A stretch of 64,000 nt of DNA from Chiloscyllium plagiosum (taxonomy: Eukaryota). Position numbers and translations under genes: made by a program. Every line of letters starts with the position of its first letter. Within the stretch, counting starts at the first letter, position 1. Positions 2,398 through 57,684 of this stretch are shown here, in pieces. Below the pieces are notes generated by a model. It did not search any database. It saw only the letters and a program-made list of their open reading frames with translations, and was not told the DNA's origin. Location: the NCBI RefSeq assembly GCF_004010195.1, contig NC_057718.1, forward strand, positions 22,860,952-22,924,951. The letters are read 5' to 3'.

Positions 2398-4030
2398 AGG
2401 AATAACAGGGGATGCTGGAAATCTGAAATGAAAACAGAAATTGCTGGAGAAATGCAGCAGGTCTTGCAGTGTCTGTGCAGTAAAATCAAAGTTAACATTT
2501 CGCATCCAGTAACCCTCCTTCAGAACTGTTAGTAGCTAGGAAAAGGTAGCTTGTATGCTGGAGACAGGGGGATTGGGAAGGGGGTAAATATGTGAGCAAA
2601 TAGGTGGAGATGGAGACAGAAGGATGCATCTCAGTCAGCCAAAGAGAATGAAAAGGTGAAAATAGGGAGCTTAAACAGGTGGAAATGGGTTGGTTGTGCT
2701 GAAAACGGTCTATGCCATGATAAACCTGGGGTGTAAGGGTGGTAAAGGACTTAGAGGAAGGCATTCTGCTTCTAAAATTATTGACCTTGATACTGAGTCC
2801 TGAAGGCTGCAGGGTCCCCAAGTGGAAATTGAGATGCTGTTGTTCCAGGTTGGACTGAGACTCGCTGGAGTACTGCAGCAAGTACTGCAGTGAGACAGAA
2901 ATGTAGGTGTTCTGCAAAGCAGTCACCAAGTCTGCATTTTATCTCCCCAGTGTAGTGGAGACCAGATTGTGAGCAGCGAATACAGTAGATTAGATTGAAT
3001 GAAGTGCAGGTAAATCGCTATTTCACCTGGAAGATGTGTCTGGAGCCTTGGATACTGAGAAGGGAGGAAGTAAATAGGCAATTGTTATACCTTCTATGAT
3101 TGTATGGGAAGGTGATGTATGGGAATGGGAGATATTGAGAATGGAGGAGGGTTGATGCCCTGGAGGGAATGGTTCCTGTGAAATGCTGACAAGAGAGGAG
3201 AGAAGAATATGTGTCTGATGCTGTCATCCTCCTGGAAGTGGCAGAAATCCCGGCTTATGATTCTTTGGATGTTAATGCTGGTGGGGTGGTAAGTGAGCAC
3301 CAAGGGAACAATTGCAATGTTGTGGAGGGAAGAGAAGGGGTGAAGGCAGAAGTGCAGGAGATGGGTCAGGCATGGCTAAGGGCCCTGTGGGGATTCCTTG
3401 GTTGAGAAAAAGGATGGACATTTCTGAGGCTGTCTGGCAGGAGGTGGCATCATCAGAACAGATGTGATGGAGTCAAAGAAACTGGGAGAATTGAATGGAG
3501 TCTTTACAGGAGGTAGGGTGTGAGGATGCATAGTCAAGATAAGTGTGGGAGTTGGTAGGCTTGTAATGGATATCGGTGGCCAGCCTAGCACCAGAAATGG
3601 AAACAGAGATGTCAAAGAAGGGAAGATAAGAGTCAGAAAGGGACGAGGTGAAGGTGAGGGCAGGTTGAAAATTAAAAGTGCAATGGATAATTTTTTTCAG
3701 TTCTGAACCAAGGAGGGAAGCAGCACCAATGATGTCATCGATGCACCAGAGAAAGAATTGTGGGGACAGAATGAATGGGATTGGAGCAAAGGATGTTCCA
3801 TGTACCCCACAAAGAGACAGGTATAACTGGGGCCATTGCAGGTACACATGGCCACATCTTTGATCTGAAGTAAGCGAAAAGAATTAAAGGAGATATTGGT
3901 GATGGATGGGGACAGTTCAGATCTGCTTTCCAAGTAGATGGGAAAAACCCTGAGACTATTCTGATGGAGTGAATGAGTAGAGTGCTGGATCTTGATATTG
4001 ATTTCCAGCATCTGCAATGTTCTTTTATAA
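2398..4030 (-). mobile_element. Degenerate Penelope-like element (RT + GIY-YIG endonuclease + terminal repeat with hammerhead motif, family B)
   Basis: ORF 3473-3847 has RT-like WCIDDI, LPFFDISV and DIHYKPTNSHTYLDYASSHP. About 2940-3015 reads FTCTSFNLIYCIRCSQSGLHYTG (GIY-YIG). Terminus 2400-2527 reads on the minus strand agtt-ctgaagg-a-gggtt-actg-gatgc-gaaa-tgtt-aact. A short inverted tail lies near 4000-4025. Confidence 0.88.
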
Positions 4031-4050
4031 TCTATAGTGAGTATACTATG

Positions 4051-4830
4051 GTGCCAATGATGCAAGATGGCGGCGGAGTAGGACCCTCCAGCCAGAGTTT
4101 GCCTGGTTTGCCCTTCTTCTTCTTTTCTTCTTTTTTTCTTCCTCTTAGTGATTTTCTTTGTTCCTCTCCTCCTCCTTTTTGTTCTCTTTGATTCCTGGCC
4201 TCCAGCAATGATTCCCAGCCTCTGGTGACAATTCCTGACCCCAGTGAGTGACAATTCCCAGCCTCTGTGGATGATTCCTGGCCTCAGGCGATGATTCCCA
4301 GCCTCCCCTGGTGCAGTGGCCTCCCATTGCAGCCTCCTGGCCTGACATAGCCAACCTTCTGGTCACCCATTCTGGCCTCCTGTGTTGGCATGGTGACCTC
4401 TCAATCTGGCTCTGTGGCAACTTTCCGTAGGGCCCTCTTTCTCTGATGCATCAAAGACATCATTGGTGCTATTTCTCTCCTTGGTCCAGAATTGAAAAAC
4501 ATTATCCATTGCACTTTCAATTTTCACTCTGGCCTCACCTTCACCTGTTGTATGATAACCTCCTGGCCTGGCCTCCCATTGTATTCCCAGCATGGTGTGG
4601 AGCCAGGGCAAGTGTGGGCTGGAAGCTCAGTGCCAGTGTGGTCTGCTGTACTGAACTTTTAATTCTGTAATGATGGACCTTTTATTTCTGTATTGTCTAA
4701 GTCACGTAATTAAAAAACCTGTGCCTAGGTACTTTTGTATCTAAGGGTTGGCATTGTAATTAGCAACATATACACTCTTCACTTTACTCATTGAGTATAT
4801 GTGACAATAGAGGCATTCTATTCTATTCTA
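4051..4830 (+). mobile_element. Non-autonomous LINE-derived element, possibly Rex1/Babar-type
   Basis: 5' caagatggcggc motif, pyrimidine tract, internal ~20-bp tandem repeats (4195-4310), 3' gtgacaatagaggc followed by (attct)n. No RT ORF. Confidence 0.45.
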
Positions 4831-5952
4831 TGAGCAGCATTAACACCAATACTAATTTGAGAAAGCAAGTAGATTTGGGCTATGGTTATCCTGGGATTTG
4901 ATTATAAATAAAACTGATTAATAAGGAGTTTAGGAAAGGTTTTAAAAATGTAGAAATAAATGTGACTGTAGTGAGGGAAAGAACACAAGTTAATACAATT
5001 CTGTTAAGTGGATTAGAAGTACAACATTTCTCAGCCAGAAGCTCCTTGACATTTTGAAGAAATTTTGATTAAAATAGTGGTCAGAGGAATGTCTTACATC
5101 CATTTTCTGCATCTTTCCAATAATTTCTCCAATGTAATTTTCACCATCAAGAATGATATTGTTTTATCAATCTTGTAATTTTGACTACATTTGTGATTCG
5201 GGGCTAATGATTCAGAGATTGCAATTGTAAAAAAGATGGGATCTGGTAAAACATTTTTGCGAGAGATGGTATTGGGGCAGATGGGCGTATGTGTGCTGTT
5301 ATTGAAAAGACACAGAAAAGACCAGTACACACCAAAAGCAAAAGCAATATAATTAAAAGAGAAGAATTGCCAAAGGGCTTCAAATGCAGCTAAAATGAAA
5401 TCTTTGTTCTAGGCGTAACTGTGTACATTGATTTTAATAACTATTGACCATAGCTACATCCACTATTCTCTTCTCAGTACTTGCTGTTAATGATGTGAGA
5501 ATGCCCTGTCACTGGTTAGCGTGATGTTTGGTTCAGAAATCTTTTATCAGGATGAAGATTGGTGTTTGGATTTTTAGTTTAAAGCAATTCTTCTTTTCTT
5601 CTTGAAATTGATATATTGACTCAGTGTTACTTACATTTTCTAATTGCATTTACTTTCTGCCGTATGTGCAGTTTTTAAAGAAAGATAGTAACAATTATGC
5701 TTTTGTTTCACATGAAATTTTTCATTTGTCTTTTCATCCCCTCCTCACTGTTTGCACTTCCTTTTATCTTTTCCACAATGTTTGCATTTTACTGAAGCTC
5801 TTTGTATTGTTTGTTTTCTAGTTAAGGGTTTGCATTTATCAATGTTGAAGACTATCTTACTGCATATTCCCTAATTTTGAAAAATGAGAAAAACTCCATT
5901 TATTTGAGTTAAATTCCAGAGTCACGTATACATTTCAAAGCATAAATTTTGC

Positions 5953-6168
5953 AAAATAAAAACCAAAAGAACTGCAGATGCTGTATATCAGAAACAAAAA
6001 CAGAATTTGCTGGAAAAGCTCAGCAGGTATAGCAGCATCTATGAAGAGAAATCAGAGTTAACGCTTCGGGTCTGGAGGAAAGGTCATCGGACCCAAACAT
6101 TAACTCTGATTTCTCTTCACTGACGCTGCCAGATCTGCTGAGCATTTCCAGCAAATTCTGTTTTTGTT
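5953..6168. mobile_element. Inverted pair of PLE termini (family B), palindromic insertion
   Basis: 5993-6070 is the reverse complement of 6092-6168. The left arm has an extra ~40-nt extension. Flanks cataaattt at 5941-5949 and 6169-6177. Confidence 0.85.
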
Positions 6169-6185
6169 CATAAATTTAGTGATCT

Positions 6186-6494
6186 AGATTAAATTACTTA
6201 CAGTGTGGAAACAGGCCCTTCGGCCCAACAAGTCCACACCAACCTGCAACCCACCCAGACCCATTCTCTTACATTTATCCCTTCAGCTAACACTACGGGC
6301 AATTTAGCATGGCCAATTCACCTAAACTGCACATTTTTGGATTGTGGGAGGAAACCGGAGCACCCGGAGGAAACCCACGCAGACACGGGGAGAATGTGCA
6401 AACTCCACACAGAGAGTCGCCTGAGGTGGGAATCGAACCCCGGTCTCTGGCGCTGTGAGGCAGCGGTGCTAACCACTGTGCCACCGTGCCGCCC
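6186..6494 (-). mobile_element. HE1-type SINE
   Basis: Near-identical to 463-767, with A/B boxes and tail. Confidence 0.93.
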
Positions 6495-7712
6495 ACTACT
6501 CTCATTCCAAATGATTGATCTTAATGCTGAAAAATAATAGTTTGAAGAAATATCCCTCACATCTTCACTCCCATGGCTTACTACAAGTTCAGAGATATTT
6601 TCCTATTTAGTATAATTTCTGACCATTTGTGTAATCTTTCTCATAGCTGACCCTATGGTGTCTTCCCAAAAGGCTTTCTGAAAATTAAGATCTGCAACAT
6701 CTAATAGAATGGAATATTCTTCCACTTTGTTCATTTCCTCAAAACAGTTCAATCAGGTTAGTTATACAGAACTCCTTAATGCTGGTTAAGCCCTACAAGT
6801 GACCAGAAATCTAATATTTTGACCTTTAACTAGAATCTAATGGGAATTTTGCCCTCTTTCATTTCTTGGCCTAAAACTTTGAGATCATGTGAACTTCTGA
6901 CCTATGTAAGCTCAAAATGCTATTAAAAGTTAGACAATGCATTTCATCACGCATTTTTTTTTCAATAGTCTGAGTCAAATGGTGTCAGCAGATTGGTCGG
7001 CCTGCAGTGTCTTAATCTGAGATGACCATCCATGATGAGACCTTGTTAGCATAATATCTTCACAGACCATTTTCCCCCTTGAAGAATATTTGGGAAATGT
7101 TAAGAATCACTGGCTTATGAACCTGTTGAATGAGATCATGAATACTCCTTCTGTGACCATCGAGTGTTGGATTGGGACTGGAACTTGGAGGCTCCATTTT
7201 GGAGGCAATAGCAGTGCTGACTGAGTCATGAAAATCTTCATTGTGAGACCTGGCTGGAGCACTTCAATATTTAACAAGTTTCATTCTCTCTGCCAATACT
7301 TCCCAGCAATCAAGGTTCAGCTTGGAAGGCAAAGGTAAATCCCAGATTTCTTTCTCCACAATTGCGCGTCAGAAAAATAAGGTTTGCACGTGCCCTGGTG
7401 CCTGTGGAATGGAAGTACTGACTTTGATGAGCTTTTTGATAAACTGTGCACTGAAAGCAGGAAGGAGGTCTGGTAGTGCCAATGGCAGCACCAGGAGACT
7501 GGCACAGAATGACGTGGCTTTAATGGAACTCTTCCTCCTTTACTGGGTATGAGTGAAAGTGGAAAACATGTCATGCATGAAGCCTAGGACTCTCAGCAAC
7601 GTACATAACCTTTAAGTGAATACTGTTGGAATGCACTTATGATCCAACCAGGAGACCTGGGTTCAAATCCCACAGTTCCAGAGATGTGTAGCAACATCTC
7701 TGAACAGGTTGA

Positions 7713-8036
7713 TTAGATTAGATTAGATTACTTCCAGTGTGGAAACAGGCCCTTCGGCCCAACAAGTCCACACTGACCCTCCGAAGAGCAACCCACCCAG
7801 ACACATTCCCCTACATTTACCCCTGCACTGAACATTGCAGGCAATTTAGCATGGCCAATTCACCTAACCTGTACATTTATGGACTGTGGGAGGAAACCGG
7901 AGCACCCGGAGGAAACCCACGCAGACACGGAGAGAATGTGCAAACTCCACACAGACAGTTGCCTGAGGCGGGAATTGAACCCGGGTCTCTGGTGCTGTGA
8001 GGCAGCAGTGCTAACTACTGTGCCACCGTGCCGCCC
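7713..8036 (-). mobile_element. HE1-type SINE
   Basis: Full length, with (tagat)n tail at 7713-7730 on the plus strand. Confidence 0.93.
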
Positions 8037-8044
8037 AATTATGG

Positions 8045-8425
8045 AGAGTCATCAAGCTGTACAGCACGGAAACAGACCCTTTGGTCCAACTCATCCATGC
8101 TGACCAGAAATCCCACATTAATCTAATCCCATTTACCAGCATTTGGCCCATATCTCTCTAACCCTTTCCTATTCATATACCCATCCAGTTACCTTCCAAA
8201 TGTTAATTGTACCAGCATCCACGACTTTCTCTGGCATCTTATTCCTTACACACACCACCTTCTGCGTGAAAAAGTTGCCCCATTTCAATCTTTTCTCTCT
8301 CTCCTTAATTCTATGCCCTTTAGTTTTGGATTCCCCTATCCTGGGGAAAAACCTTGGAAACTTATCCTATCCATGCCCCTGATGATTTTGTAAACTTAAT
8401 ATAAGTTCATCCCTCGACCTCCTGC
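8045..8425 (-). mobile_element. CR1/HER1 LINE 3' fragment
   Basis: Reverse complement of the CR1 ORF2 end and 3'UTR seen at 20100-20439. Confidence 0.85.
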
Positions 8426-9167
8426 AGAAAATGTCTCCAAGCATCAGCATGGTCATCAATACGATGCAGTGGTGCACTTCTGGCTGCTTATTTGTGTACT
8501 CGTGCTGCCTGCTGTTTTACGGGCCCAGTTTGTACAGTGACTGAAATATAGGTACGATGCTGCCTGGTTTTGAAGTCACATGTTGCCGTTTTTACAACAG
8601 CAGTAATTCGTGGGGCACTTAAAGCTTAATTTCTTGAAATCCATCTTCATGTGACAGGTTTGACTGATGGCTTCGTGCTCAGTGTAGTTTCTCAGGGGAG
8701 TGATCCACAAAGTATGTTTTATCCTGATTGAGATAAAAGAAATGAGCTTTTTATTACCGTGACAACTCACATTTTTAGAATAATGTTTGGCAGCAGGTTC
8801 TTCTGAACTCTTTAATCTGATTAGTCGTAATTAGAGCGCCTAATCCTGATTTATCTTTTCTTTTCTATAATCATGCATGTGGAGACAAAGGCACAATCCA
8901 GAGGTGCAGAGAGCACTCCAGAGCCACGGACAAGTGACCAGAGTTGATCAGATCTATAGGCTGAAAATCATCTGGGTTATCAGAGCCAGGACTGGTTATG
9001 TCTTCAAGCTTTCTGTAAGGGTCACTGGAGAACTCATTATCTCTTCCTCATTTCAGGGCACTACTGCAGTCCTGAACCACATCCTGTCGAAACTACACTG
9101 ATTCAGGCCTGGTCCAAGGATTGAATTGGAATTCACCTTGAACTGTACAACTCAACAAGCTTCAAGA

Positions 9168-10378: not shown

Positions 10379-10379
10379 A

Positions 10380-17531: not shown

Positions 17532-17839
17532 GGGTGGCACAGTGGCACAGTGGTTAGCACTGCTGCCTCACAGCGCCAGAGACCCGGGTTCAATTCCCAC
17601 CTCAGGCGACTGACTGTGTGGAGTTTGCACATTCTCCCCGTGTCTGCGTGGGTCCCCTCCGGGTGCTCCGGTTTCCTCCCACAGTCCAAAGATGTGCTGG
17701 TCAGGTGAATTGGCCATGCTAAATTGCCCGTAGTGTTAGGTAAAGGGGGTATGGGTGGGTTGCGCTTCGGTGGGGCGGTGTGGACTTGTTGGGCCGAAGG
17801 GCCTGTTTCCACACTGTAAGTAATCTAATCTAATCTAAT
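17532..17839 (+). mobile_element. Young HE1-type SINE
   Basis: CpG-rich full-length copy with intact A/B boxes and (taatc)n tail. Confidence 0.94.
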
Positions 17840-18619
17840 TTCCAGATACAGATCCCATGTCATGCTGGCAGATATTTAGTGGCTGCGGTCTGCATTCCCC
17901 TTGAAAATAAGAGCGGACTATGGTCTCCAAAGACTGGAGGGCTAACAGAAGCTGTCCAACAGTGACACATCGACAGTCCCACTCTGTGAGTGGTGAGCGA
18001 GGTAGGAGAGAAAGAGAGTAGGCACTTAACAACCTTACAACATAAAGAGACCAGAGCTTCCATGCAGTCATCCTTCAAACATATGTCTCTCAAGGGCAGG
18101 CTGTGACCACAGCTATGGATATCTAGCACAGATGGTACCATGGAGGAGTGTGGGAGGCAATTAAAATGATAAATGGAGGAAAGGAGCATACCCCCTCCCC
18201 CCAAGTCTATTGCCAGGAGCCTGCTTCAATTCATTGACCAGATATTACTGATGGAGAGGGGGCAGTGATAACGCTGACTGGGGAGTGACCTTAACAGGAC
18301 TTAAAGAGTCAATCAGCAGGTAGCTGTCTCCACCCCGATCTCCTGCCCAGTGAGCTTCAAACTATCCCGGGGGCATAAATGTGTTGGCAAATCACTGGTT
18401 CACCAGACAGCGCTGGCATCTTGAAGCCAGGCAACATCCACTGCCTTCCTCACAACTGTGTAAAGAATACAGGCCTTAATTGTGCTTCAATTTCCTTTCT
18501 CCTGACCTTTTTTAATTTAAAGCACTTATCAAATCAACCTGTAACAAAAAATTATACACATTTAACAAGAGATTATTTGTATTTCTGTATGCCAGGCAGT
18601 ACCTTAGTGAATCTGTGTA

Positions 18620-20439
18620 TGGCCATTTCTGAAGGGAGAAGACAGAGGGTGGCGGTGGTGGAGGGTTGCTTTTCAGACTGGAGGCCTGTGACCAGCGCTG
18701 TGCTACAAGGGTCAGTGCTGGGTCCACTGCTTTTTGTTATTTACATAAATGATTTGGATGTGAATATAGGAGATTATGTTAATGAGTTTGCAGATGACAC
18801 CAAAATTGAAGGTTTAATGGACAGTGAAAAAGGTTACCTCATCTGCCAAGGAGTGGTAGATGGAGTTTAATTTAGATGAGTGTGAAGTGCTACATTTTGG
18901 AAAGGCAAATCAACCTGTAACCTAACTTATGCACTTAATGGTATTGTCCTGGGGAGTGTTGCTGAACAAAGAGACCTTGGTGTGCAGCTTCATAGTTGCT
19001 TGAAAGTGGATTGACAGGTAGATAGGATAGTGTGGTTTGGTATGCTTTCCTTTATTGGTCAGGGCTCTAAGTATTGGAGTTGGGAGGTCATGTTGCGACT
19101 GTAAATGTGAGGTGATGCACTTTGGGAAGAATAACAGGAAGGCAGAGTACTAGGTCGATGGAAAGATTCTTGGTAGTGTGGATGTGCAGAGGGATCTTGG
19201 AGTCCATGTACATAGATCCTGAAAGTTGCCACCCAGATTGATAGTGCTGTTAAGAAGGCATACGGTGTATTAGGTTTCATTCGTAGAGGGATTGAGTTCC
19301 GGAACTGCAATATCATGCTGTATCTATACAAAATGCTGGTGTAGCCACACTTGGAATATTCTGTACAGTTCTGGTCCCCATATTTCGGGAATGATGTGGA
19401 AGCATTGGAAAAGGTGCAGAGGAGATTTACCAGGATGTTGCCTGTTCTGGAGGGAAGGTTTTATGAGGAAAGGCTGAGAGACTTGGGTCTGTTCTCATTG
19501 GCAAGAAGAAGGCTAAGAGGGGATTTGATAGAGACATACAGATGACCAGAGGATTAGATAGGGCAGACAGTGAAAGTCTTTTTCCTAGGATGATGACGTC
19601 AGTGTGTACGAGGGGGCATAACTATAAATTGAGGGGTGATAGACATAAGACAGATATCAGAGGCAGGTTCTTTATGTAGAGAGTGGTACGGGCGTGGAAT
19701 GCCCTACCTGCCAATGTAGTCAACTCAGCCACATTAGGGAGATTTAAACAATCTTTAGATAAACACATGGATGATTTTGGAATAGTGTAGGGGGACGAGC
19801 TGAGAATAGTTCACAGGTCAGCACAACATCGAGGGCGGAAGGGCCTGTTCTGCATTGTATTGTTCTATGTTCTATGTTCTATGACATTGGCTAAGCCACT
19901 TCTGGAAGATTGTGTTCAGTCCTGATTGCTCTGCTATAGGAAGGATATTTTGAAACTTGAAAAGGTTCAGAAAAGACTTACAAGGACGCAGACAGGGTTG
20001 GAGGACTTGAGCTATAGGGAGAGGCTGAATAGGCTGGGGTTATTTTCCCGGGAGCAATGGAAGCTGAGGGGTGACCTTATAGAAGTTTATAAAATCATGA
20101 GGGTCATGGATAGCCAAGGTTTTTTTCCTGGAGTGGGGAAGTCTAAAATTGGAGGTCATAGTTTTAAAGTGAAAGGGGATAGATATAAAAAGAGACCCAA
20201 GGGTGACATTTTCATGCAGAGGGTAGTGCGTGTATGGAATGAGCTGCCAGAGGAAGTGGTGGAGGCTGATACAATTACAACATTTAAAAGGGGACTGGAT
20301 GGGTATATGAATAGGATGGTTTTAGAGGGATGTGGGTCAGATGCTGACAAATGGGTCTAGATTTATTTAGGATATCTGGTCAGCATGGATGAGTTGGACT
20401 GAAGGGTCTGTTTCTGTGCTGTACATCTCTATGACTCTA
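18620..20439 (+). mobile_element. CR1/HER1 LINE RT and 3' end (outer element)
   Basis: QGSVLGPLLFVIYINDLD...FADDTK, then LEKVQKRLTR...RVVRVWNELP. Ends ctctatgactcta. Confidence 0.93.
19105..19881 (+). mobile_element. Nested CR1 of another family
   Basis: Second copy of the ORF2 C-terminus (EYSVQFWSP...[12 protein letters not shown]) with its own (ttctatg)n tail. Same family as 15933-16646. Confidence 0.9.
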
Positions 20440-24045: not shown

Positions 24046-25862
24046 AAGCATGGTTGACCGGAGATGGTCCCACTTTTACCACCAGCCATAGGTATCTCAG
24101 AAGAAATTAGAGGTTGATAATCAAGCTGTTTGGCCATCTTATAAGAACTAGGAGCAGGAGGGGCATTTCAGCCCCACGAGTCTTGCTGAATGCTTCTTCT
24201 GTGACCATCATGCCTGGAGCTGCAGTTCACCCGAGAGACTCTGGCTCAAAGGTGGAGATGCTACTAATTGTGCCACAAGATGTCCTTCCCTTTCTATGCA
24301 CACTGACTCATCCATTGGCCTTTTTATGTTCCATTTGTTCAGTTGTTTAGTTTCTAGTACGAATGCATAAAAATTGTGCAGTAGTTAGTTATTATAAATC
24401 AGTGAAGTAACTGATGATTTAACCAGCTGTAAGCAGATCAATCAGAGAAATGAGGCTGCGATGGAGACGGACAGAGAAGTAACACCCTGTACTAGACTGT
24501 ATACAGAGAAGGTATTACACTGAAGGTATACAGTGTAAACAAAGGGTTGGAGTTACTTTACCATCCCTAAATCCAGGTTAATTTTAGAGAACAGTTAAGG
24601 AGAACCAATTGGTTCAACATGAGGGGGACTGGGTCAAATCAAGCTTTCTATTAAGATCTACATTCCATGACTACTGGTTTTCCAGATTAAAATTGACAGC
24701 CTTTCTCCTGTTTCTGGCAGATGGGCTTATCACCATTTTCTGGAAATTCCAGCAGCTGGGATTTGGGTGGCAACCAACATTTGAGGTGGTCTGACTGAGA
24801 CAGGGAAAAGAAATTTCACTTTAATAGAGAGCTGCGGTTCTCAATTGTTCGGATTCATTGAAGGTAGAGATTGATAATTTGTTTTGGAAACTGGAGGAAT
24901 TGAGCTAAATGCGGTTAGTGTAGAAAAGTGGAGTTTAGGTTAAATATCAGCCTTGATCAAATTGCATTGCAGAGCAGGCTGGATCAGTGGGAAGGTATGC
25001 ACTAATTTCTCAAGTTGGATTGATTTGAAAGTGAACTGTTTTCTTGACTGTAAGGTGATTACAGCTGTCACTTGCTTATTGAGAAGTTATATAACAATAT
25101 GTATATGCATGTTTTAGAATCATCCTTCATAAATCCTATGATTAAAGACAATGATGGCCCACATCTTGCTCACCCTGTCCACATATAGTAAGGAGGCTTC
25201 AAAGCTGAATGACTAAAATCAAGTTAATTATTAGGCTTTGAATTATTAATAGAATTAGACTTATCTGCAATGAAGAAAAGCAGATTAAAGGGATCATAAA
25301 TTTAATCTTGGAAACATTAAGTGGCAACAGAACATGCTGCTTGAGCAAAGAATTCATGAAATCTTTTGATACATTTGAGACTGCTAAGAAAAGAGATAAA
25401 TATTCATAGAATAATGGATATATAAACCAGACTGTTGATTAAAGTGTCTAAAAATCAGTTCAATAAATTATGCTTTTAAGGCAGAATTGATGGAGATAAC
25501 AGCAATTTTGGATAAAGACGATAAAACATTATATTGAACATGAATGTCTTGTCAGTTGTTAGTACCATGTATATATCCTAACATGGACTACAACTTTATA
25601 TTAGGAGATAAGAAAGCTCATGGGTAGAGTGGAAATTTCCTTTGCTTGTGACATGACAAGGATATTGTAAGCATAGTAGGAAGACTTCCTTTGTTTGCTA
25701 TTTCTAACAAAAGGGATCTCAGTCCTTTACATAAAATTTGTGATTTAGTTAGAATAATTAGCTGAGGAAGGAGAAAGTGAGGTCTGCAGATGCTGGAGAT
25801 CAAAGTTGAAACTTTATTGCTGGAACAGCACAGCAGGTCAGGCAACATCCAGGGAACAGGAG

Positions 25863-25898
25863 ATTCGACGTTTCGGGCACAGGCCCTTCTTCAGGAAT
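25863..25898 (-). ncRNA. Minimal type I hammerhead ribozyme motif (mirror copy)
   Basis: Exact reverse complement of 25904-25939. Confidence 0.8.
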
Positions 25899-25903: not shown

Positions 25904-25939
25904 ATTCCTGAAGAAGGGCCTGTGCCCGAAACGTCGAAT
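25904..25939 (+). ncRNA. Minimal type I hammerhead ribozyme motif (intact core)
   Basis: AUUC-CUGAAGA-A-GGGC-CUGU-GCCC-GAAA-C-GUC/GAAU. Stem I AUUC:GAAU, stem II GGGC:GCCC, palindromic loopless stem III ACGU, GUC triplet. Confidence 0.8.
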
Positions 25940-29857: not shown

Positions 29858-29899
29858 CTTGAATAGATTTAATAACCCAACCTGCCGATTGCAGGTTAC

Positions 29900-34584: not shown

Positions 34585-35305
34585 AGATCAATGCGAATTT
34601 TGAGAAGATTTGTAGCTCAGGTTGAGGTTCAGGTTGTAAGTTTGCTCGCTGACCCGGTAGGTTTGTTCTCAGGTGTTTCATCACCACGCTAAGTAACATC
34701 ATCAGTGAGCTTCTGGTGAAGTGCTGGTGCTCTGTCCCACTTTCTATTCATGTGTCTTAGTCTGGTAAGGTGGGTGATATCATTTCCGGTTCTTTTTCTC
34801 AGACGTTGGTAAATAGAGTCCAAATCAATGTGTTTATTGATGGAATTCTGGTTTGAATGCCAGGTTTCGAGGAATTCCTGTGTGTGTCTCTATTTAGCCT
34901 GTCCTAGAATGGATGTGTTGTCCCAGTCAAAGTGGTCTCCTTCTTCTTCTGTGTGTAAGGATACTAGTGAGATCTGGCCATGTCTTTTGGTGGCTAGTTT
35001 CCTGCCTGTCTGTCCAATATAGTGTTTGTTGCAGTCTTTGCAGGGTATTTTGTAAATGACATTCATTTTGCTGGTTGTTGGTATAGGGTCCTTTAGGCTT
35101 ATCAGTAGCTGTTTCAGTGTGTTGGTAGGTCTGTGGGCTACCATGATGCCAAGAGCTCAGAGTACTCTGGAAGTCACCCCCCGAAATGTCTTTGATGTAT
35201 GGTAGTGTGGCTAGAACCTCTGGACATGTTGTGTCTTCTTGTTTGGGTTTGTTGTTTAAGAATCAGTGGGCTGTGTTCATCCGGTACTCATTGTTCTTAA
35301 ATATA
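34585..35305 (-). mobile_element. Penelope/Poseidon-type PLE 3' part (family D) with GIY-YIG and hammerhead motif
   Basis: ORF 34890-35144 has NVIYKIPCKDCNKHYIGQTGRKLATK. Minus strand 34668-34709 reads ctca-ctgatga-t-gttact-tagcgt-ggtgat-gaaa-cacc-tgag. Confidence 0.88.
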
Positions 35306-36036: not shown

Positions 36037-36140
36037 GTAAAAACAATGACTGCAGATGCTGGAAACCAGATTCTGGATTAGTGGTGCTGGAAGAGCACAG
36101 CAATTCAGGCAGCATCGAGGAGCTTCAGCAAGCTTTATTC
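36037..36140 (-). mobile_element. Short PLE-terminus insertion with 14-bp TSD
   Basis: TSD ttgatcacattacg at 36023-36036 and 36141-36154. Contains ctgcagatgctgg...gtgctggaagagcacagc. Confidence 0.85.
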
Positions 36141-36481: not shown

Positions 36482-36613
36482 AAGGAGAAAGTGAGGACTG
36501 CAGATGCTGGAGGTCAGAGTCGAAGAATGAGGTACTGGAAAAGCATAGCCGGTCATGCAGCATTCGAGGAGCAGGAGAGTTGATGCCTTGAGCATAAGCC
36601 CTTCATCAGAAAT
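36482..36613 (-). mobile_element. Solo PLE terminus (family A) with decayed 14-bp TSD
   Basis: aggagaaagtgaggactgcagatgctgg...gcataagcccttcatcag. Flanks cagttgatagttac and cagctgatacttac. Confidence 0.85.
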
Positions 36614-37692: not shown

Positions 37693-38215
37693 GGCAGAGA
37701 GCAGAGTTAACATTTCTAGTCCAGTTGTCCTTCATCAGAACTGATAGCGGCCAGGAAAAAGTGGTATTTATGCTGAAGACAAAGTTGGGGGAGGGGTGGG
37801 GGAAAGGGAGAGGTGAGAGGGTAGGTGGAGATGGAGCCCAGAAAGAGAAAAGGGTAGGTCAATGAGGGGATAAGGGATGACATGACTAGACATCAAATCC
37901 TAGACTCTGCAGGGACCCCAAATAGAACACGTGTTGCTGTCCCCTCATTTTCCTATCCCTTCCATTTCTCTCTCTCTGCCTGGACTCCATCTCTACCTTT
38001 CCACTCACTTCTCCTTCCCCCCGCCCTTCCCCAACATTGTCTCAATAAATAGCATAAATATCACTTTTTTTGTATCTGCTATCAGTTCTGATGAAGAATC
38101 ATTAGATTTGAAACATTAACTCTGCTTTTCCACAGATTCAACCAAACCTGTTGAACCTTGCCAGCAATTTCTGTTTTTGTTTCAGACCTCCAACATCTGC
38201 AGTTCTTTGCTTTAT
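37693..38215. mobile_element. Inverted pair of PLE 3' ends (family B), each with a hammerhead motif
   Basis: Minus 37705-37742 reads agtt-ctgatga...gaaa-tgtt-aact. Plus 38084-38121 reads agtt-ctgatga-a-gaatc-atta-gattt-gaaa-catt-aact. Confidence 0.82.
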
Positions 38216-38629
38216 TGTCTTGAGAATGAAGATTTGCATTGGTGCACTTGGTATTAATCATTGCGCATAATGTTATGCAGTGTGCCAAAAACTATTCAAC
38301 TGTGGAAGGAAGTCTCATGCCCTCAGCCAATCACTCCATCGATTCACCTTCTGCACAAGTTGATTTATTGCAGCTAACAGCAGGAAGAATGACTATTATG
38401 GTTTTGCTCGTCTTGTTCAAAATTTCAATTTATAGTGACACATGCTCTTGGCAAGAATATTAACAAATGGATACCCACAGAGATAACATTAAACTGAGGC
38501 AAAATTATAAAAGTAGTTGATACGAGAGTAATTCTGATGCTGTATTTAAGTTTTGGTCTTCTCATGGCAATATGTGTCAGGCTTGTTTCATCTTGTAGCA
38601 TTCTGGCCATTGTTCATTGTTCATGCTCC

Positions 38630-38974: not shown

Positions 38975-40214
38975 CACTGTCTAAATCTCTTCAGTCAAAC
39001 TGCCCTGCAATGACTAATATTTACAATGATCAGCATTATTTTTGAATTTCGCTACGCTATCCTGTAGTTCACATAATCCATCATCTTAAATGTTTACGCT
39101 TGTCAAAGTAAATGAGGTGCAATGGTATTACTATTATGCGTCACACACATTATTGAGTCAATGCTAAACAATTTTTATCGGAGTTTCCAAAAATACAGAT
39201 TTGGCATTTGGAATGTAGTAGGTAGACAGTGAAGGTATAATTGATTTCTGTTTTGCCTGGCCCATTATCAAAATCAGTTTTTTTTGTGTGTGAAATGTTT
39301 TCTACTAATTTATAAAGGTCAATAAATAAAATACTTGTGTTCCAAGGTTCACACAGATTTGTTCGGATTTGTCACAAGATTTTGAATGTAAGAAGTTGGA
39401 CAAAAGTAAGTGTGTAACTGGCACTAAATTATCCTCCTGCATTTTACATGAGGGCTCATGCTCATTGCCCTTTAAATTAAGTGTGACCGCTACTTGTAAG
39501 GGAAAGAATGTGAGCAGTGAGCATGCAGTTACTGAAAGCTCAGAACAGTAGCATTTGAGAAATTTCACAGTATAACCAATCCACAGAAAGGAAAATCTGC
39601 TCAAAATGCAATCAAAATCTTGAGAAAAAGCCCACTGGAAAACTAATGGAGTTAACGTGCTTCATTCACTGGTTTAAGACCAACATAACATGATGAGTTT
39701 AATAGTGATCCACTTTGTAATACTGACTTTGCATCAATCTCAGGACAAAGAAATTAGGCAAAATTGCTGAGAAGCAAGTGCTGGAGACCTCAAGCATTGA
39801 AGTTCACAAGATCTTGGGGTGGGGGAAGTGGGGGGTGGGGTTGGGGGTGGTATCCAAGTTCACTGAGATTCATTCTCTGACATCAGCTCACTAAGGTAGC
39901 TGCAGTTTGGGGTTCATGGGCAGAGGGGAAGAAGGAGAACACCAGGATCAGCTGGTTTCAGCTTCCTCCGCACTGGCAGCAGTATTATCAGCATTGTCTT
40001 GGTCATTGGGCTCACTTGAAGCCTCTCTCCTCCCCTTTATCTCCCATCATACCTGGGCTGGAGGAAGAAAAGATTTGAATGCTATCATGTCTGACACTGA
40101 TCCTGCCTGGCAGCAGCTCCCCTTCCCTCTCAGCAAACCCAAGCCAGACACCGATCTGATGAGGCATTGGGGATAAACTCAGGCCAAGACTCTAAATGCT
40201 CAACACCAATCCAC

Positions 40215-40340
40215 AAGAACTGCAGATGCTGGAAATTGTTGACAAAATCTGAAATTGCTGGAAAACTCAGCAGGCCTGACAGCGTCTGTGGAGAGAACTC
40301 AGAATTAACATTTTGGGTCCAGTGACTCTTCTTCAGAACT
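40215..40340 (-). mobile_element. Solo PLE terminus (family B)
   Basis: Minus strand agtt-ctgaaga-a-gagtc-actg-gaccc-aaaa-tgtt-aatt followed by the conserved tail. Confidence 0.82.
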
Positions 40341-43677: not shown

Positions 43678-44490
43678 GCACAGAAAGAGGACGTTTGGTC
43701 CATCGTATCAGTGCCCATCATCAACTTTCATCTGCTGGAATCCCATTTCCCATTACTTGGCCATAGCTTTCAATACTATGGCTTTTCAAGTGCTCATTTA
43801 AATAATTATTAAATCTCTTCAGGGTTCCTGCTTCAACCATTCTTTCACACAGCGAATTCCAGAAACTTACAACTCTCCGGCTGAGACAATTTCCCTCAAA
43901 TTTCCGCTCAACTTCCTATTCCTTATCATAAATCTATACCCCTGGTTTTTGACCCCTCTACTAAAGGGAGAAGTTTCTCCTTATTTATCCTATCTATGGT
44001 CCTTAGAATTTCTGTGTGCTTCAAGCAGATCCCCCTTCAGCCTTCTCTGCTCTAAGGAAAACAATCCCAGCTTATCTAGTGTCTCTTCATAGTTGAATTG
44101 CACTGCCTGGTGAATCTCCTCTGCACCTTCTCTAGTGCAGTCACAAAACTGCAAGCAGTACTCCTGCTTTGGCCTGACTAATAATATATGCAGCTCCAAC
44201 ATAACCTCCTTGCTCTTCGATTCATTGCCCTGACAAAGGAAGACAAGCATCCCATATGCATTCTTAACCACCTTGTGTATCTGTCCTCTGCTTTCAAGGA
44301 TCTGTGGACAAGTACAGCAAAGTCCCTCCGAATCTCAGTGCTTCCTAGTGTCCAGCCATTCAAAATGCTCTCCTTTGCCTTGTTAGTCATCCAAAAATGC
44401 ATCATCTCAGACATTTCAGGATTAAATTCCACTGTTGAACCAACTGACCACTCCGTCGGGACCATCCTGCAGTCTAAAGCTATTTACCAC
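43678..44490 (-). mobile_element. CR1 LINE fragment
   Basis: ORFs 44178-44465 (VEFNPEMSEMMHF) and 43990-44271 (KEVMLELHILLVRP...LGLFSLEQRRLKGDL). Confidence 0.88.
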
Positions 44491-44897
44491 ACTTTGCTAG
44501 CTCTGCAGTTGTAGATCTGATCCAAGGAAGTGGATGGTTAACTGACCAGCAGCTTTGTGGCGTGTGGCTACTGTAGACACTCCTCATTGTGATATGAAGG
44601 TAAGAGAAGTGCTCTCTGTATATCTTAAGGATTGAGACGTCTATGGAGAGCCTTCTTCCTCCTCCTCCTCACTCTGCCAGAGGTTTCTCCTTCATGTTGT
44701 TTCTGCTCCATCTCTCTGTTATGCTTCAAGAAGAGCAGAATCTTCAGTCACCATTACTTTCTGCCTAGGGGCCTTATCCTTGCAATGGTCCAGCACCGTT
44801 CACCCTGAGCTGCAGAAGGCAATAGTATGAAGCCTTCCTGTATCACAGTGTGCATAAATGTGCAGTAATTGGACCGTCCCTTGCCTCAATGTAAAGA

Positions 44898-45016
44898 AGA
44901 AGGGCTTATGCCCGAAACGTCGATTCTCCTGTTCCCTGGATGCTGCCTGACCTGCTGTGCTTTTCCAGCAACACATTTTCAGCTCTGATCTCCAGCATCT
45001 GCAGACCTCACTTTCT
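44898..45016 (+). mobile_element. Young solo PLE terminus (family A) with perfect 14-bp TSD
   Basis: TSD cctcaatgtaaaga at 44884-44897 and 45017-45030. Begins aga-a-gggc-ttat-gccc-gaaa-cgtc, so the CUG of the core is lost. Confidence 0.92.
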
Positions 45017-45076
45017 CCTCAATGTAAAGATAGTCCAGTCACAGACTATAATAACAAGACGATAGTGTTTTAGTGA

Positions 45077-46977: not shown

Positions 46978-47831
46978 GCATGGTGATTTGAGGGGTAAAT
47001 TCACTCTCATGCATTTTGAATACCCCAATACATAATAGAATTGGCAGGGATGTTAAAGCAAGATTTTAGCCTTCAGAATGCTTCCATGTTTCTAGGATTA
47101 AATCTAAATCTTAGACAGTGAAAACGAAAACAAATTGACATTTTAAAAAGTTCTGGTCTTTTTGAATTTCCACAGTTTTTTTCTCTATTTGCTTTTCACA
47201 TTTCAAGAATTTACAACTATTTGAAACATAGTTTCTCTGCATAGTCTTGTAGCAGAGTCCAATCTCTCAGATTCAATCAAGATATAGAAAACAAAGGGCA
47301 GGAATAGGCCCAAAGTAGTTCATTTACGACACGCAGGGGCAGAGAGGAGAAAGCTTCACCAGTTCATTATCCTGCTCACTGTAGATTACCTGTGCAAATG
47401 ATCTATTTTCTTTAGAGTAGACCTCTTACTCAGTAGTGGCCTCTGCCCAATACAGATCCTCTACCTATCGTATATCTCAAAAGACACACTTGCCTTAATA
47501 GCGCAGAGACTATGGAAAAGGATAGTTGCAGGTTAAATCAGGGAGCCATAGTGTTATAATTTCCATCTACAAAAATTGTACAGGTACCAAAGATTTATTT
47601 CTATGAATAAAGTATATTTTGAAATAAAAAAAATCTAACCAAATACACCATTCAGGCTATCACATCTGTACACATTGCAACTCATCTTCTAAGATTTCTA
47701 CTAAACGTTCCTCTCTCTCTCTTGCTTCATGTAGCAGAGGTTTGATCAACTGAAAAATGTTCTCTTTAATTTCTCACAGTTCACTACAGAATTGTTGATC
47801 CTTACAGGAGACAGAACATGGATTATGGCCA

Positions 47832-47934
47832 CAAACAAAAACAGAAATTGCTGGAATAACTCAGAAGGTCTGGCAGCATCTGTGGAGAGAAATCAGAGTT
47901 AACATTCCAGGTCCAGTGACTCTTGTTCAGAACT
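47832..47934 (-). mobile_element. Solo PLE terminus (family B)
   Basis: aaaacagaaattgctgg...gcagcatctgtggagagaaatcagagttaac...ggtccagtgactcttgttcagaact. Confidence 0.82.
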
Positions 47935-49330
47935 GATCACGGCTCCATTTTACACAACACAAGTACAGTTCAGAGTCCATTCCTCTGTTGAACTCTAAGA
48001 AAAGTTTTGTATATTTGTGAGCTCTCACATTTTTGTAACAACGTATCTTAAGCTTATTTCCCTCAGTCTATTTTACAAACAGGTGTTTGCTTCTGCTAAA
48101 CTTTCTGTGTCTCTTCAATTAACGTGAAAAGCCTCCGTGTCCCAGAAATTACATTTCCTAGAAATACCACCCTCTTAAATTTTTCTGACTCTCCTCTGGT
48201 CTCTCATTTGCTCTTCTTTTCTTGGTTGCAGACAATGACTAGCATTTTTTCGGAAACACTTGTTTATAGAATCTCATAATGTGACGAAATTGGACTGTCC
48301 TGTTTGAATAAGTACCTTGTTCATGTTGTTAGAGTTCCCTTCTTCAACCATATCCCTAGTCTGCTGTTTCCGTTGAATTATTTATATTCTTTAGAAGTTC
48401 CATGGTTTGCTTGAATCTAATCCTCTTATCACCATTTTTGAGTCAATATGACTCAGTGACCTATTGTAGTATGTTGAGAAGCAATGGATGAACCTAAAAT
48501 TAAGACAGGAAGTATTGGAGAAACTCAGGAGATCTCGCATCATCTAACAGAGTTAATGTTTCGAGTCCAATGTTATTGTTTTTTGGAACACTGGGTGACC
48601 CTCATTGGCAACATGAATTCCTTCTGTTCTCAGACTTCGGCGGATTATCAAATGCTCCACTTGTTTTCAACTGACCCAAGCCATGTTGCAGTTGAACCAA
48701 AGTAAATTGGTTACTACCTCCTGGAATTTCTCAGGCACAATTATGCGAATATCATGTGTCAAATGGTTTACTTTTGCATAACTTGCTTTTTTTTCCCACT
48801 ATTAATCATCGGGCCTACATTTTTGCTGATATTGTTGATGTTCCATTGCTCAAGTCTTCCCATGTCATGTTCCACTGTGTCTCCAACCAAAGTGGAGGCT
48901 GCTTTTCCCACTATCCAAAATATTGCAGTCGTGACCATTCAGGGCAATGTCACAGGATTTGCCGAACAAGAACGTTAAATCACAGGGTTGACCGAATGCA
49001 CGTTGACATTATCCGATCTTCAATGCCATCCTGTTCTGACTCTCAGTCTTCCTTTTGATATGATTGTACCCTATGTGTAGGCTTAAAAGGAATAGTTGGT
49101 AAAGGCACCAAATTGTTTGCCCTGCAACCCATGTGCAAACATAGTGTTTATAGTATCTGCTGTACTCAGCATTTCTTGCTCAATCTGTTAGAAAACAGAA
49201 ACTTGCCTTTATTTTAATCTCTTCCACCTCTCCTCACAATGGAACTGCTTTTATACTCCATTGGTTTCAGATGAATGTGAAGCAGGCTGCCCACTCACTA
49301 TCAGTTTATTTTGTTTCCTCTATGCGGAGG

Positions 49331-49443
49331 TGGGTACTGCAGATGCTGGAGACTAGAGCCAAGATTAGAGTGATGCTGGAAAAGCACAGCAGGTCAGGCA
49401 GCATTCCAGTAGCAGGAAAATTGACGTTTCGGGCAAAAGCCCT
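49331..49443 (-). mobile_element. Solo PLE terminus (family A-like)
   Basis: ctgcagatgctggag...gacgtttcgggcaaaagccct, truncated at stem II of the hammerhead. Confidence 0.82.
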
Positions 49444-50320: not shown

Positions 50321-51247
50321 TTTATTACCAATAGTAATATGATAATCCAATTACATTGTTCACAACAGAAACAATAAAAAGGTTAAATGAACAGAATGAT
50401 CAAAAATCCAAACAATAGTTATGATGTGATGCATCCTTTCACATGTGGATCTTATTTTTAAAGTAATGATAATCTGACCCAGCTACATGCTTTAAAAAGC
50501 TCTGTAAGACACATAGAATAAAGCAATTAAAATTTTTGATTCACATCCTATGTCCCATTCTTATTTCCTTGAATATTTTGTGATGAAGAAGTGTTCGTGA
50601 ATCCTTTATTCTTTCATGCCTGGGAGTATAATGAATTCCACAGGACCAAAAAGTCTGACTGCAAGTTTCTAAATAATTGTAAACCAATTATTCACTCCAT
50701 TAAAGTGAATCTAAAAAAAAACCCACAAAATGATAGGTTGTTAAATTTAAATATGGATAAGAAAAAAGACAAAGACACAAGGAAAATTCATATAGCATTG
50801 AAGAAAATTACTTTCTGAATCAATGCAAAGAAGTTATTGGGTTGAAGAAGTCTACATGGAGAACAGAAAGGATCATTTGGGAAATGCTAAACTCAAAGTT
50901 TAATCATTTCCTGATAAAGCTCAGTAGTTAAGCCTCTTGGCTAAGCAGAGTGTCCCTGCCAAATTTCACTGGAAACCTATTTGCAGATGCTTTTATGCAC
51001 TTGTTCAAAATCGCTCAATATTTGTATATTCAGTCAAGCTGTTCAACTACCATCAAATGATCAGCTATGTACTTTGAATATAATTGCACATCATGTTCTA
51101 CAGGGACAAGCCCTGGGGTATGTTTCAGATGTATTGACACTGTGTTTGCTGAGCAAGATGTTATCAACTGGAACCTGGAGAATATAGCTACGATTTAATC
51201 TATTGCAAAGGTTGTGAAGATAAACTCCAACACTGCATCAACCTGAG

Positions 51248-51400
51248 AGAATGCTGGACAACATCAGCAGGTCTGAGGCCTCTATGGAGACAAAGCAGAG
51301 TTAATGTACCGAGTCCGGTATGACGCTTGTTCAGAACCAAATTCCTCCAGCACTCTCTGTGTTTGTTTCAGAGTTCCCGCATCAGCAGTATTTTGTTTTA
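51248..51400. mobile_element. Decayed inverted PLE termini (family B)
   Basis: tgctggacaacatcagcaggtctg...cagagttaatg...ttcagaac followed by the inverted tail ctccagca...gtttcagagttcccgcatcagcag. Confidence 0.65.
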
Positions 51401-51559
51401 ATTTGAGCTCCGACACAGCAGTCAGAATACTTGCAAAACAAGGCTTTTTCAAATAATAATGCTTTCTCTCCACTTCCCGTTCATTACCTGCTTCCTTTTG
51501 AAATGTAGGCATGTTTCCTATCTCCAAGACATTACTAACATTAACATTTCTAACATTTG

Positions 51560-55801: not shown

Positions 55802-56156
55802 TGGCATAGCAGCTCAGTGGTTAGCACAACAGCCTCACAGCTCTAGGGACCTGGGCTTGATTCCAACCTTGGGTGCCTGTCTGTGTGGAGTTTGCTCATT
55901 CTCCACATGTCTGTGTGGATTTCCTCTGGGTGTTTTGGTTTCCTCCCACAGTCCAATCATGTGTATGTTAGGTGGATTGGCCATGCCAAATTGTCCATAG
56001 AGTGCAATTAGGTGGGGTATCCATGGTAAATGTGGGGTAATGGGGACAGAGTGAGGGGGGATTGGGTCTTGTGAGCTCCTCTTTGGAGGGTCGGTACAGA
56101 ATCAATGGGCTGAATAGCCCCTTTCTGCAATGTAGGGCTTTTTAAATTCTATTCTA
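55802..56156 (+). mobile_element. HE1-related SINE variant
   Basis: tRNA-like head, core and ttctattcta tail. Confidence 0.85.
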
Positions 56157-56496
56157 TACAATCTCACAATCCTACTCCTTCCATGAGACCATCTGATACT
56201 CGTACCTGAAAGTTGAACCAAAGCGCATCCCTCTTCCCACTTGGGCTGCGACTGTTTGATCCTCTTTCAGTTCAGTCTCCAAATTCCATCATTGACTGCA
56301 CTAACCCAATCTTTATAGGACCACTTCCATCAAACTAAGCCTGTCCGGAAATCTCATACGCCATCCGAAACAGGATCACAACATTCATGACACTTGGTCC
56401 TAACTTGCCGAATTAGACAATGTCCCTCCATGGCTCTCTCCCTGCATCAGATAATCTCCCTCCATATCTCAGACAGTCTCCTTCCCTCCCTGTCTC

Positions 56497-56790
56497 TGTG
56501 GTGGTGGTGACTGCCTTCTTGAGCTGCTGCTGTCCACACAGGTCAGCCAGGTACCCCCACAATGCTGTTAAGGAAGATGCTCCAGGATTTCGACTCAGCG
56601 ACAATGAAGGAACAGTGATCCATTTCCAAGTCAGAATGTTGAGTGGCTTGGAGGAGAACTTGCAGGTGTTGATGGTGTTCCCAAGTGTTTCCTGTCCTAA
56701 TTTTTCAAAGTTTGAGGCGATGGGTTTTGAAGGTGTTAGCAAAGGAACCTTGGAGAGTTATTGCTGTGTGGAGCTTGGGCCTGCCCTGAG
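56497..56790 (-). mobile_element. CR1/L2-group LINE 3' fragment
   Basis: GNTINTCKFSSKPLNILTWK...QQLKKAVTT, same family as 11540-12760. Confidence 0.72.
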
Positions 56791-56799
56791 GGAGAGAAC

Positions 56800-57022
56800 A
56801 TTGTGAATCAATGGAATCCTTTACATAGAGGTTTTTGAGACTGTGTGGTTGAATGTATTCACGGCTGAAACAGACAGATAACTCATAAAGAAATCCAGGA
56901 GTTTGGGGAGAAGGCAAGAAAGGAGTTGAGGAATATCAGATTTGCCATGGTCTAATAAACCATGAAGCAGACTTAATGGGCCAATAAACCTACTTCTGCA
57001 CCTATGCTTTATGGTCTTATGG
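56800..57022 (+). mobile_element. CR1 3' end
   Basis: gtgaatcaatggaatcctttac...cctacttctgcacctatgctttatggtcttatgg. Confidence 0.72.
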
Positions 57023-57557
57023 ACTAGCTCCTTTAGTTCCCAGAAGAAGAAAAAAAAACAGTAAAACTTGCAGATGTCAACCTCATCTTGTGTACCTTAA
57101 TGAGGGGCTCCAGTATGACCAGGACCTTCATTTTGAGGTATTTCTGTCCTTCTCGGTGATACCCTGTGGCTGAGATGGTTGACCTCCAATCGCCACAGCC
57201 ATGATTTTAACCAGCAGACCATCTCCAGCATTCCCTTCTCTTCCCGCAAATCTCAGTAACTGAAGTTTAGCTAGTAATCATTAATGCTATGCCCTGACAA
57301 ATGTTGTCTTTTTGCCAAGTGCAGTTGCCCTCACCTACTTTGTTGAGTTCAGCCTTTTTTGTCCATGTTTATAACAAGGCAGTAATAAGGTCAGGAGCTG
57401 GGTGGCCTGGGCAGAAGGCAGACTGATCATCAGTGAGCAGGTTATTGTTGAGTAAGTGCCACTTGACAGCACATGCAATGACACATCCCATCACTTTGTG
57501 AATGAGCATTGATGCTGTTCATTGTGACTATTCCACGCAGTAGTAATTTCTGTGTAG

Positions 57558-57684
57558 GCAGAAGCCGGTACTGCAGATGCTGGAGATTAGAGTCAAGATT
57601 AGAGTGGTGCTGGAAAAGCACAGCAGATCAGGCAGCATCCGAGGAGCAGGAGAATTGACATTTCAGGCAAAAGCCCTTCATCAG
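57558..57684 (-). mobile_element. Solo PLE terminus (family A-like) with decayed TSD
   Basis: Minus strand starts exactly at ctgatga-a-gggc-tttt-gcct-gaaa-tgtc. Flanks agtaatttctgt and agtaacttctgt. Confidence 0.85.

Follow-up and report, generated by a model that had tools for sequence, protein, structure and literature searches.

We analysed a window of 64,000 nucleotides (nt) from Chiloscyllium plagiosum (contig NC_057718.1, positions 22,860,952 to 22,924,951 of the forward strand), in which a preliminary description had reported four families of hammerhead motifs, here called A, B, C and D, and we compared these motifs with copies elsewhere in the genome. The four motifs are almost certainly minimal type-I hammerheads lying in the terminal repeats, or pseudo-long terminal repeats (pseudo-LTRs), of Penelope-like elements (PLEs). 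We found that most copies of A, B and C, but not of D, are stubs of 90–135 bases, and that in every family the copies have two preferred 3' ends, which are combined when copies are paired head to head. Internal double priming, with run-off at the 5' end of uncut RNA, is probably the best overall explanation of these insertions.

Insertion Anatomy of the PLE Copies

Copies were sampled by motifs downstream of the cut site, at the first places listed on contig 1. The two preferred 3' ends are 35–38 nt apart in all families; in young A copies the distance is 36 nt, and 31 of 82 arms end at each peak. Among 25 head-to-head pairs of family A, 22 joined a long arm to a short one and 3 joined a long arm to an odd end, while none was long with long or short with short; the chance that 22 of 22 pairs would all be long with short is 2e-7. 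The same rule was seen in the D3 subfamily, where 29 of 34 pairs were long with short and none was alike, the rest being unclassed (one pair is counted twice). Family C gave 25 long–short pairs out of 38, with 2 of the same type and 11 unclassed (25 of the 27 classifiable), and family B gave 8 out of 17, with 1 of the same type and 8 unclassed (8 of the 9 classifiable). Moreover, target duplications of 12–17 bp accompanied 22 of the 25 A pairs, and the hallmarks of insertion by endonuclease-bearing PLEs were all found, namely an inverted pseudo-LTR, a tail of 30–40 nt at one end and a target duplication. The pairing of one long with one short arm fits one primer at each start site per event, and the pairs were probably made by twin priming, with two internal sites serving as starts.

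Short and long young A copies have the same sequence, and the centres of the fold-backs vary from copy to copy. The short 3' end of family A lies in a predicted stem-loop (window 25768-25810, minus strand), like the start sites of the anole element described below. In D3, identical inversion junctions occur at separate loci (L253 and L269; L260, L345 and L368), and these represent either strong joining hot spots or a self-spreading fold-back form. At another locus (L222:2797-3434, minus strand) three A ends stand head to tail, 320 and 223 nt apart, as a retrozyme-like tandem of deleted units; they are joined by a piece of a likely open reading frame (ORF) start plus 3' untranslated region (UTR), within a short-period tandem repeat.

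5' Ends and the TATA-Like Box

The 5' ends of family A were concentrated at the hammerhead: in 35 of 82 arms the first nucleotide lies no more than 2 nt from where stem I begins. Of the others, 26 started 3–13 nt downstream, for the most part at joints of fold-backs, and 7 started beyond that range; upstream, 2 started at -7 and -9 and 12 at a distance of over 20 nt. None of the 82 began at the cut site, and hammerhead cleavage was therefore rejected as the source of these ends. In family B, 18 of 30 arms started between -8 and +1 of the core and 1 further upstream. Family C provided 116 arms with a whole core, 40 of them long and 76 short; the short arms ended at -10 to -5 (41), at -4 to 0 (24) or further up (11), so that most C ends, relative to a stem I base at -3, lie 2–7 nt beyond stem I. 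D3 had no pile-up, and 65 of its 80 listed arms (two of them listed twice) extended at least 44 nt upstream. Some B copies, all short (L326, L328, L336 and L337), start with AATT and not AGTT, which breaks one pair of stem I. Two further sources of the 5' ends were tried and rejected: a splice acceptor, for which AG is present in B but not in A and no shared leader precedes the stubs, and a distinct mini-family marked by a 5' end of its own, which had seemed to appear in the first 20 loci and came from the first bases of the query.

Long copies carry a TATA-like box at a constant position upstream of the hammerhead. In B it occurs in 10 of 21 copies (-35 to -33), in C in 44 of 60 (-40/-38), in D1 in 17 of 39 (-47) and in D3 in 55 of 63 (-53). 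The usual distance from a TATA box to the start site is about 30 nt, and the box precedes the B ends by 29–31 nt and the C ends by about 32 nt; the C pile-up is offset from stem I in the direction that the box predicts. The ends of A and B also fit the initiator pattern YYANWYY. In one RNA run, the read depth rose about 3.5-fold across the A boundary.

On balance, the stubs seem to be run-off products from the transcription start site of uncut RNA, and, judged from their sequence, the copies were made from RNA that had not been cut. The endonuclease would make a staggered cut of about 14–15 bp, and both 3' ends would prime, one at each start site. Transcripts of A, B and C would begin at stem I or shortly before it, about 30 nt behind the TATA-like box, and with priming only 90–135 nt downstream of such an RNA start, copying of the first repeat would produce complete but tiny run-off complementary DNAs (cDNAs). 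The two cDNAs would be joined at short matches into fold-backs, or one of them would be lost, leaving a solo stub; the stubs would be without a TATA-like box and would then decay. The fold would be kept only in active masters, and there cleavage may be slow, as a dimer or with an element protein. The anole element cuts and extends both target strands, has two internal start sites, demonstrated in vitro, that bound its tail and uses an uncut RNA template (PMC11167929), and PLE promoters lie in the pseudo-LTR according to the accessible portions of two earlier papers (PMC2377424; PMC3846280). As a tentative extension, most hammerhead stubs of this genome may be the integrated PLE counterpart of retroviral strong-stop DNA, in which case the messenger RNA of A, B and C would begin with the ribozyme, and a protein dimer would always prime one target strand per start site and copy the uncut RNA as far as its cap.

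Several observations weigh against double priming with run-off. Family A has the sharpest pile-up and no canonical TATA box (0 of 21 long copies), with TTTATC at -35 in 21 of 21; D3 has the best TATA-like box, and only about 3 of 80 arms lie near the predicted start while 65 run at least 44 nt upstream. In C, 40 of the 116 arms are long and 24 of the 76 short ones end between -4 and 0; moreover, each C end was placed with whichever of 64 long copies matched best, which may extend it too far by a few bases. The 11 C pairs and 8 B pairs that could not be classified belong here as well. The step in read depth may mirror only genomic copies inside host transcripts, and poly(A) single-cell reads showed no pile-up of read starts or ends. 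In addition, no full-length element was recovered, and the long copies contain N runs. Sequencing run X20 gave 8 and 0 reads. A cap-derived extra G, sought by eye, was confounded by target and partner bases.

Alternatively, the stubs might be ordinary 5'-truncated 3' ends, left where the reverse transcriptase (RT) stalls at a hammerhead of the 3' repeat that is folded, dimerised or bound by protein. Truncation at the 5' end is the rule in PLEs, as far as the available text of one survey goes (PMC8557442), the pile-up in A and B coincides with the base of stem I, and D3 behaves as plain truncation would. However, the enzyme copies through the whole motif before it stops, the C ends mostly overshoot stem I by 2–7 nt, D3 has the same fold with an even longer stem II yet no pile-up, and in B and C a TATA-like box stands 29–32 nt upstream. 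We consider stalling unlikely.

Trimming is a more doubtful alternative. RNA would start further upstream and be shortened by a 5'-to-3' exonuclease to the protected base of the hammerhead, and the trimmed RNA would then be copied. This predicts ends at stem I of A and B with a scatter of a few bases and needs no TATA box, which A lacks, but it leaves unexplained the TATA spacing in B and C, the C offset and the missing pile-up in D3; we regard it as improbable.

It is very improbable that the stubs are an independent family, like a short interspersed nuclear element (SINE) or a retrozyme, that uses PLE proteins. Such a family would fit the very high copy number with 100% identical copies, the tandem of deleted A units at L222 and the D3 inversion junctions shared between loci. 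On the other hand, the identity of short and long young A copies, the differing fold-back centres and the start of the stubs downstream of a TATA-like box speak against it, and the apparent special 5' end of the first 20 loci was traced to the query.

Identity of the Hammerheads and Selection on the Fold

The motifs lie where the preliminary description had placed them, with the stems that it quoted, apart from the mismatches given below. Consensus sequences were built homology-first, from copies gathered via the sequence downstream of the motif, and in A, B, C and D alike they retained the CUGANGA and GAAA core, the NUH cut triplet and the paired stems, whose absence would have told against a selected fold. 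The topology is type I, with stems I and II and G-C at 10.1–11.1. The extra base after A9 is U in D and A in the other three families, and positions 15.2–16.2 are palindromic: CG in A, D and part of B, and GC in C. The largest B cluster reads TG there, through CpG decay. The hammerheads sit in the pseudo-LTRs of elements that encode an RT and a GIY-YIG endonuclease. A scan against Rfam gave no hammerhead family match up to E 5.

These families had been counted as four distinct ones. We found that A and B align at the DNA level with 69% identity across 118 nt (E 4e-13) and are thus homologous, while the best DNA-level match of C and D to the other families reached only E 0.4. Judged by these alignments, A and B form a single lineage and C and D are unrelated at the DNA level, so at least three PLE lineages bear the hammerheads.

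The earlier claim that the fold is selected applies between subfamily masters and between lineages; individual copies decay, and the covariation rests on few events. In D, 89% of 130 cells were paired against 28–50% with the partners slid (13 hand-picked copies of three subfamilies), and one pair of stem I, which reads UA in 6, GC in 5 and CG in 2 of these copies, is swapped on both sides between homologous subfamilies. The covariation score of D was 0.344, with 0 of 500 shuffles as high; because both partners change in only 2 of the 10 pairs and a pairing descriptor had served to choose the rows, this counts as support and not as a test of significance. Two pairs of stem I have changed on both sides between A and B. 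When pieces were folded, the hammerhead was not the lowest-energy fold in 5 of 6, and none beat its shuffles (z -1.3 to +1.6). The computed energy of a double hammerhead, -13.3 against -14.4 kcal/mol for two monomers, is uninformative on self-cleavage as a dimer. Rates of decay in core versus flank were set aside as biased by ragged ends. Selection on the fold acts on master lineages, and the genomic copies are decaying passengers.

That the motifs are chance matches or dead sequence without any selection on the fold is hardly credible: with only 2 of 17 window arms intact, single motifs that fold no better than shuffles and no Rfam match it holds for individual copies, yet it is contradicted for the masters, given 3 strict-descriptor sites in the window where none of 100 block shuffles had any, consensus cores that are intact in every family and double-sided changes between homologous subfamilies.

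Abundance and Coding Remnants

The claim that the genome hosts a very abundant ribozyme-bearing PLE system was borne out by exact motif counts across the whole genome (A 8,970 and 16,616; B 1,040; C 7,947; the D3 subfamily 7,877), with 0 for the reversed-sequence controls of the family motifs. In 13 other stretches, 11 picked arbitrarily and 2 flanking the window, we found 34 element ends in 125,732 bases, about 270 per Mb; by rough extrapolation the whole 3.56-Gb genome would hold nearly a million PLE ends. One A insertion occurs with the same flanks at two places on contig 1, 3.5 Mb apart (L127/L128 and L135), as a segmental or an assembly duplicate.

The reported link of B, C and D to GIY-YIG and/or RT remnants was confirmed, all three being seen upstream in the window. 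A broken RT plus GIY-YIG remnant (4050-2904, minus strand) lies upstream of the B core at 2523. A GIY-YIG remnant at 29310-29080 (minus) lies upstream of the C core at 28232; the C copy cited earlier, at 29740, is the inverted partner of this one. In D, a broken C-terminal remnant (34830-35262, minus) lies upstream, with a directly read GIY-YIG motif at 35060-34983; it was not matched by A or B protein queries. Family A has no coding remnant in the window, and elsewhere in the genome A motifs follow RT/GIY-YIG ORFs at many loci. Pfam matches of these A-linked ORFs were weak, both under the cut-off (GIY-YIG E 0.0045, RVT_1 E 0.0053). Pfam matched none of the PLE remnants in the window, and a PDB search with an RT piece returned no match. 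Among named proteins, those closest to an A endonuclease piece come from bamboo, whale and zebra sharks and from skates.

The order of RT followed by GIY-YIG is visible in broken copies, including an A-linked locus (L106). A Cys-x4-Cys-x2-Cys linker precedes the endonuclease in this locus and in the C remnant (ORF 29184-29501, upstream of the endonuclease) and is decayed in the B remnant of the window; a Cys linker between RT and endonuclease is a mark of Neptune and Nematis in the portion of Craig et al. (2021; PMC8557442) that is accessible. In D, A9-U-G10.1 is the ATG that opens a conserved frame of 36 codons in the D1 and D3 consensus, and the peptide is shared by both subfamilies. The extra base of D is U, where the others have A, because it forms part of this start codon; at the stem II position of the hammerhead, the other three families lack one. 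The clade names, tentatively Neptune/Nematis for A, B and C and Penelope/Poseidon for D, are assigned by motifs and not by a tree.

Copies in the Window

A homology search of the window, which consists mostly of repeats, returned 23 element ends (A 9, B 11, C 2 and D 1). Seventeen of them still span the motif. Counting as intact only arms in which the core, both stems, a palindromic stem III and the cut triplet are all kept, we found 2 intact arms among these 17, both of family A (cores 25908, plus, and 25894, minus). Most of the others no longer have the CG of stem III or the G of GAAA. The statement that the core is kept thus fails for the copies, and a catalytic position is damaged in every one of the cited copies B 40336, C 29740 and D 34705.

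All A arms were found by homology. The short arm at 25904-25998 (plus) holds an intact minimal hammerhead at 25904-25939 and runs to the nearer of the two 3' ends; its stem I ATTC:GAAT, stem II GGGC:GCCC and palindromic ACGT agree with the preliminary description, and its cut triplet is GTC. That description had not included its mirror twin, a long arm (25768-25898, minus) with a second intact hammerhead and a 36-nt tail, which stands head to head with it. The pair is flanked by a 16-bp target site duplication (25755-25770 and 25998-26013). A solo long arm at 44896-45019 (plus) has a 14-bp target duplication (44884-44897 and 45017-45030). Older A arms are cut within the motif (355-422, plus), have a decayed GAAA (33204-33281, minus), are decayed long arms (36482-36613, minus), have lost the core (49330-49443, minus) or keep the core with a decayed stem III (57571-57687, minus), and an A-like arm at 36050-36120 (minus) is without a hammerhead.

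Family B is represented by a head-to-head pair at 37696-38216, with 3' UTR on both arms and cores at 37738 (minus) and 38088 (plus). The second of these is the copy described at 38084; its stems I and II are as claimed, and its stem III has decayed from CG to CA. The solo arm at 40212-40340 (minus) begins at stem I. This minus-strand copy, described at 40303-40340, has AAAA in place of GAAA, and the pairing GAGTC:GACCC contains an A-C mismatch; the homology-first consensus of B stem II is GGGTC:GACCT/C. Homology further identified a pseudo-LTR end with a decayed hammerhead (2387-2527, minus), an arm cut within the motif (2284-2368, minus), a head-to-head pair of a long minus and a short plus arm with an 11-bp duplication containing one mismatch (5955-6168), a weak arm of 67% identity (48497-48572, minus) and a decayed head-to-head pair (51246-51404). 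A solo short arm lies at 47830-47937 (minus).

The C element comprises a pseudo-LTR with the short 3' end and core 28232 (28144-28403, minus, found by homology), the GIY-YIG remnant (29080-29310, minus) and an inverted pseudo-LTR with the long 3' end (29560-29862, plus), which has TATAAA at 29700 and a decayed core at 29740. In this last copy, stem II and AGCT stood as described, and the core opens with T in place of C and GAAA reads AAAA. The D end (34591-34709, minus), whose hammerhead carries the ATG at A9, extra U and G10.1, has stems I and II as quoted for 34705; its cut triplet is broken, and its extra base is T and not A.

A tandem array of 41-nt units (29937-30387) lies directly beside the C element. 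The window also contains an abundant SINE-like family of 250–350 nt (519-768, 6246-6495, 7788-8037, 17535-17853, 31696-31945, 55802-56143 and others), which presumably resembles the tRNA-derived SINEs of sharks; ARAGORN found no tRNA. Remnants of long interspersed nuclear elements, which we take to be of the CR1/L2 type, occur at 18379-18867 (Pfam RVT_1, E 0.00026), 19887-20412, 27001-27520, 31186-31518 and 43990-44514. A Pfam scan of 14 further long frames of the window recognised no host gene exons.

Comparison with Known Systems and Implications

The hammerheads are a known PLE feature, ordinary in kind and unusually abundant here. This class of motif, including the extra base, the palindrome and families rich in compensatory changes, has been known since 2014 from the pseudo-LTRs of metazoan PLEs (Cervera and de la Pena 2014; PMC4209133), and in what is accessible of that paper the likeness covers the type-I topology with a short stem I, the extra base between A9 and 10.1, the G-C at 10.1–11.1, the palindromic 15.2–16.2, many families per genome and mostly single motifs with close opposite-strand pairs. 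The same text names fishes, coelacanth, Xenopus and reptiles but no sharks, with 4,000–9,000 motifs per genome, whereas here there are hundreds of thousands of ends; it treats single motifs as truncated copies with unmapped 5' ends, which are mapped here. The preliminary finding thus repeats the 2014 result at a much higher copy number in a shark-type genome, and its value is in the anatomy.

PAc, the Poseidon element of the green anole (Frangieh et al. 2024; PMC11167929), has the same two start sites bounding a tail of 30–40 nt, the same cutting and extension of both strands and the same uncut RNA substrate. Like the frame of family D, its ORF opens at stem II (the ATG is 28 nt before the cut site here and 26 there), in contrast to families A, B and C, which lack a start codon there. 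The PAc work found no strand difference in the start site, and the strict pairing of one long with one short arm and a fixed 5' end are not described there. Endonuclease-bearing PLE units (Arkhipova et al. 2013, PMC3846280; Craig et al. 2021, PMC8557442), in the sections available, share the adjacent inverted 5'-truncated copy, the tail at one end, the target duplications and TATA- and initiator-like motifs in the pseudo-LTR. Their duplications are given as 8–10 bp, against 12–17 bp here, and their solo repeats are ascribed to recombination or deletion, while the solo copies here have duplications and a shared 5' end. Non-LTR retrozymes, according to the partial text of Li, Clavereau, Pollet (2026; 10.64898/2026.07.22.740005), are likewise non-coding units with type-I hammerheads related to PLE pseudo-LTRs, and the one chondrichthyan genome in that survey had them. 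However, retrozymes are head-to-tail tandem arrays, and the copies in the window stand alone or in head-to-head pairs. In the open literature, taken without Repbase and Dfam, no publication was found that deals with PLE hammerheads of sharks, with 5' ends fixed at the hammerhead, or with twin priming or strict long–short pairing in PLEs.

The role of PLE hammerheads and the resolution of PLE insertions have been stated to be open (PMC11167929, and the accessible part of PMC8557442). Thousands of near-identical young copies now give exact coordinates for both priming sites, for the staggered cut and for the likely 5' end of the RNA, and two clades in one genome differ in a way that is directly testable. 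If the stubs are indeed the integrated counterpart of strong-stop DNA, the start site of the element would be recorded in this genome by fossil read-outs numbering hundreds of thousands, and the hammerhead fold would act on the 5' end of the RNA or on its pairing, and would not cut the template that is copied.

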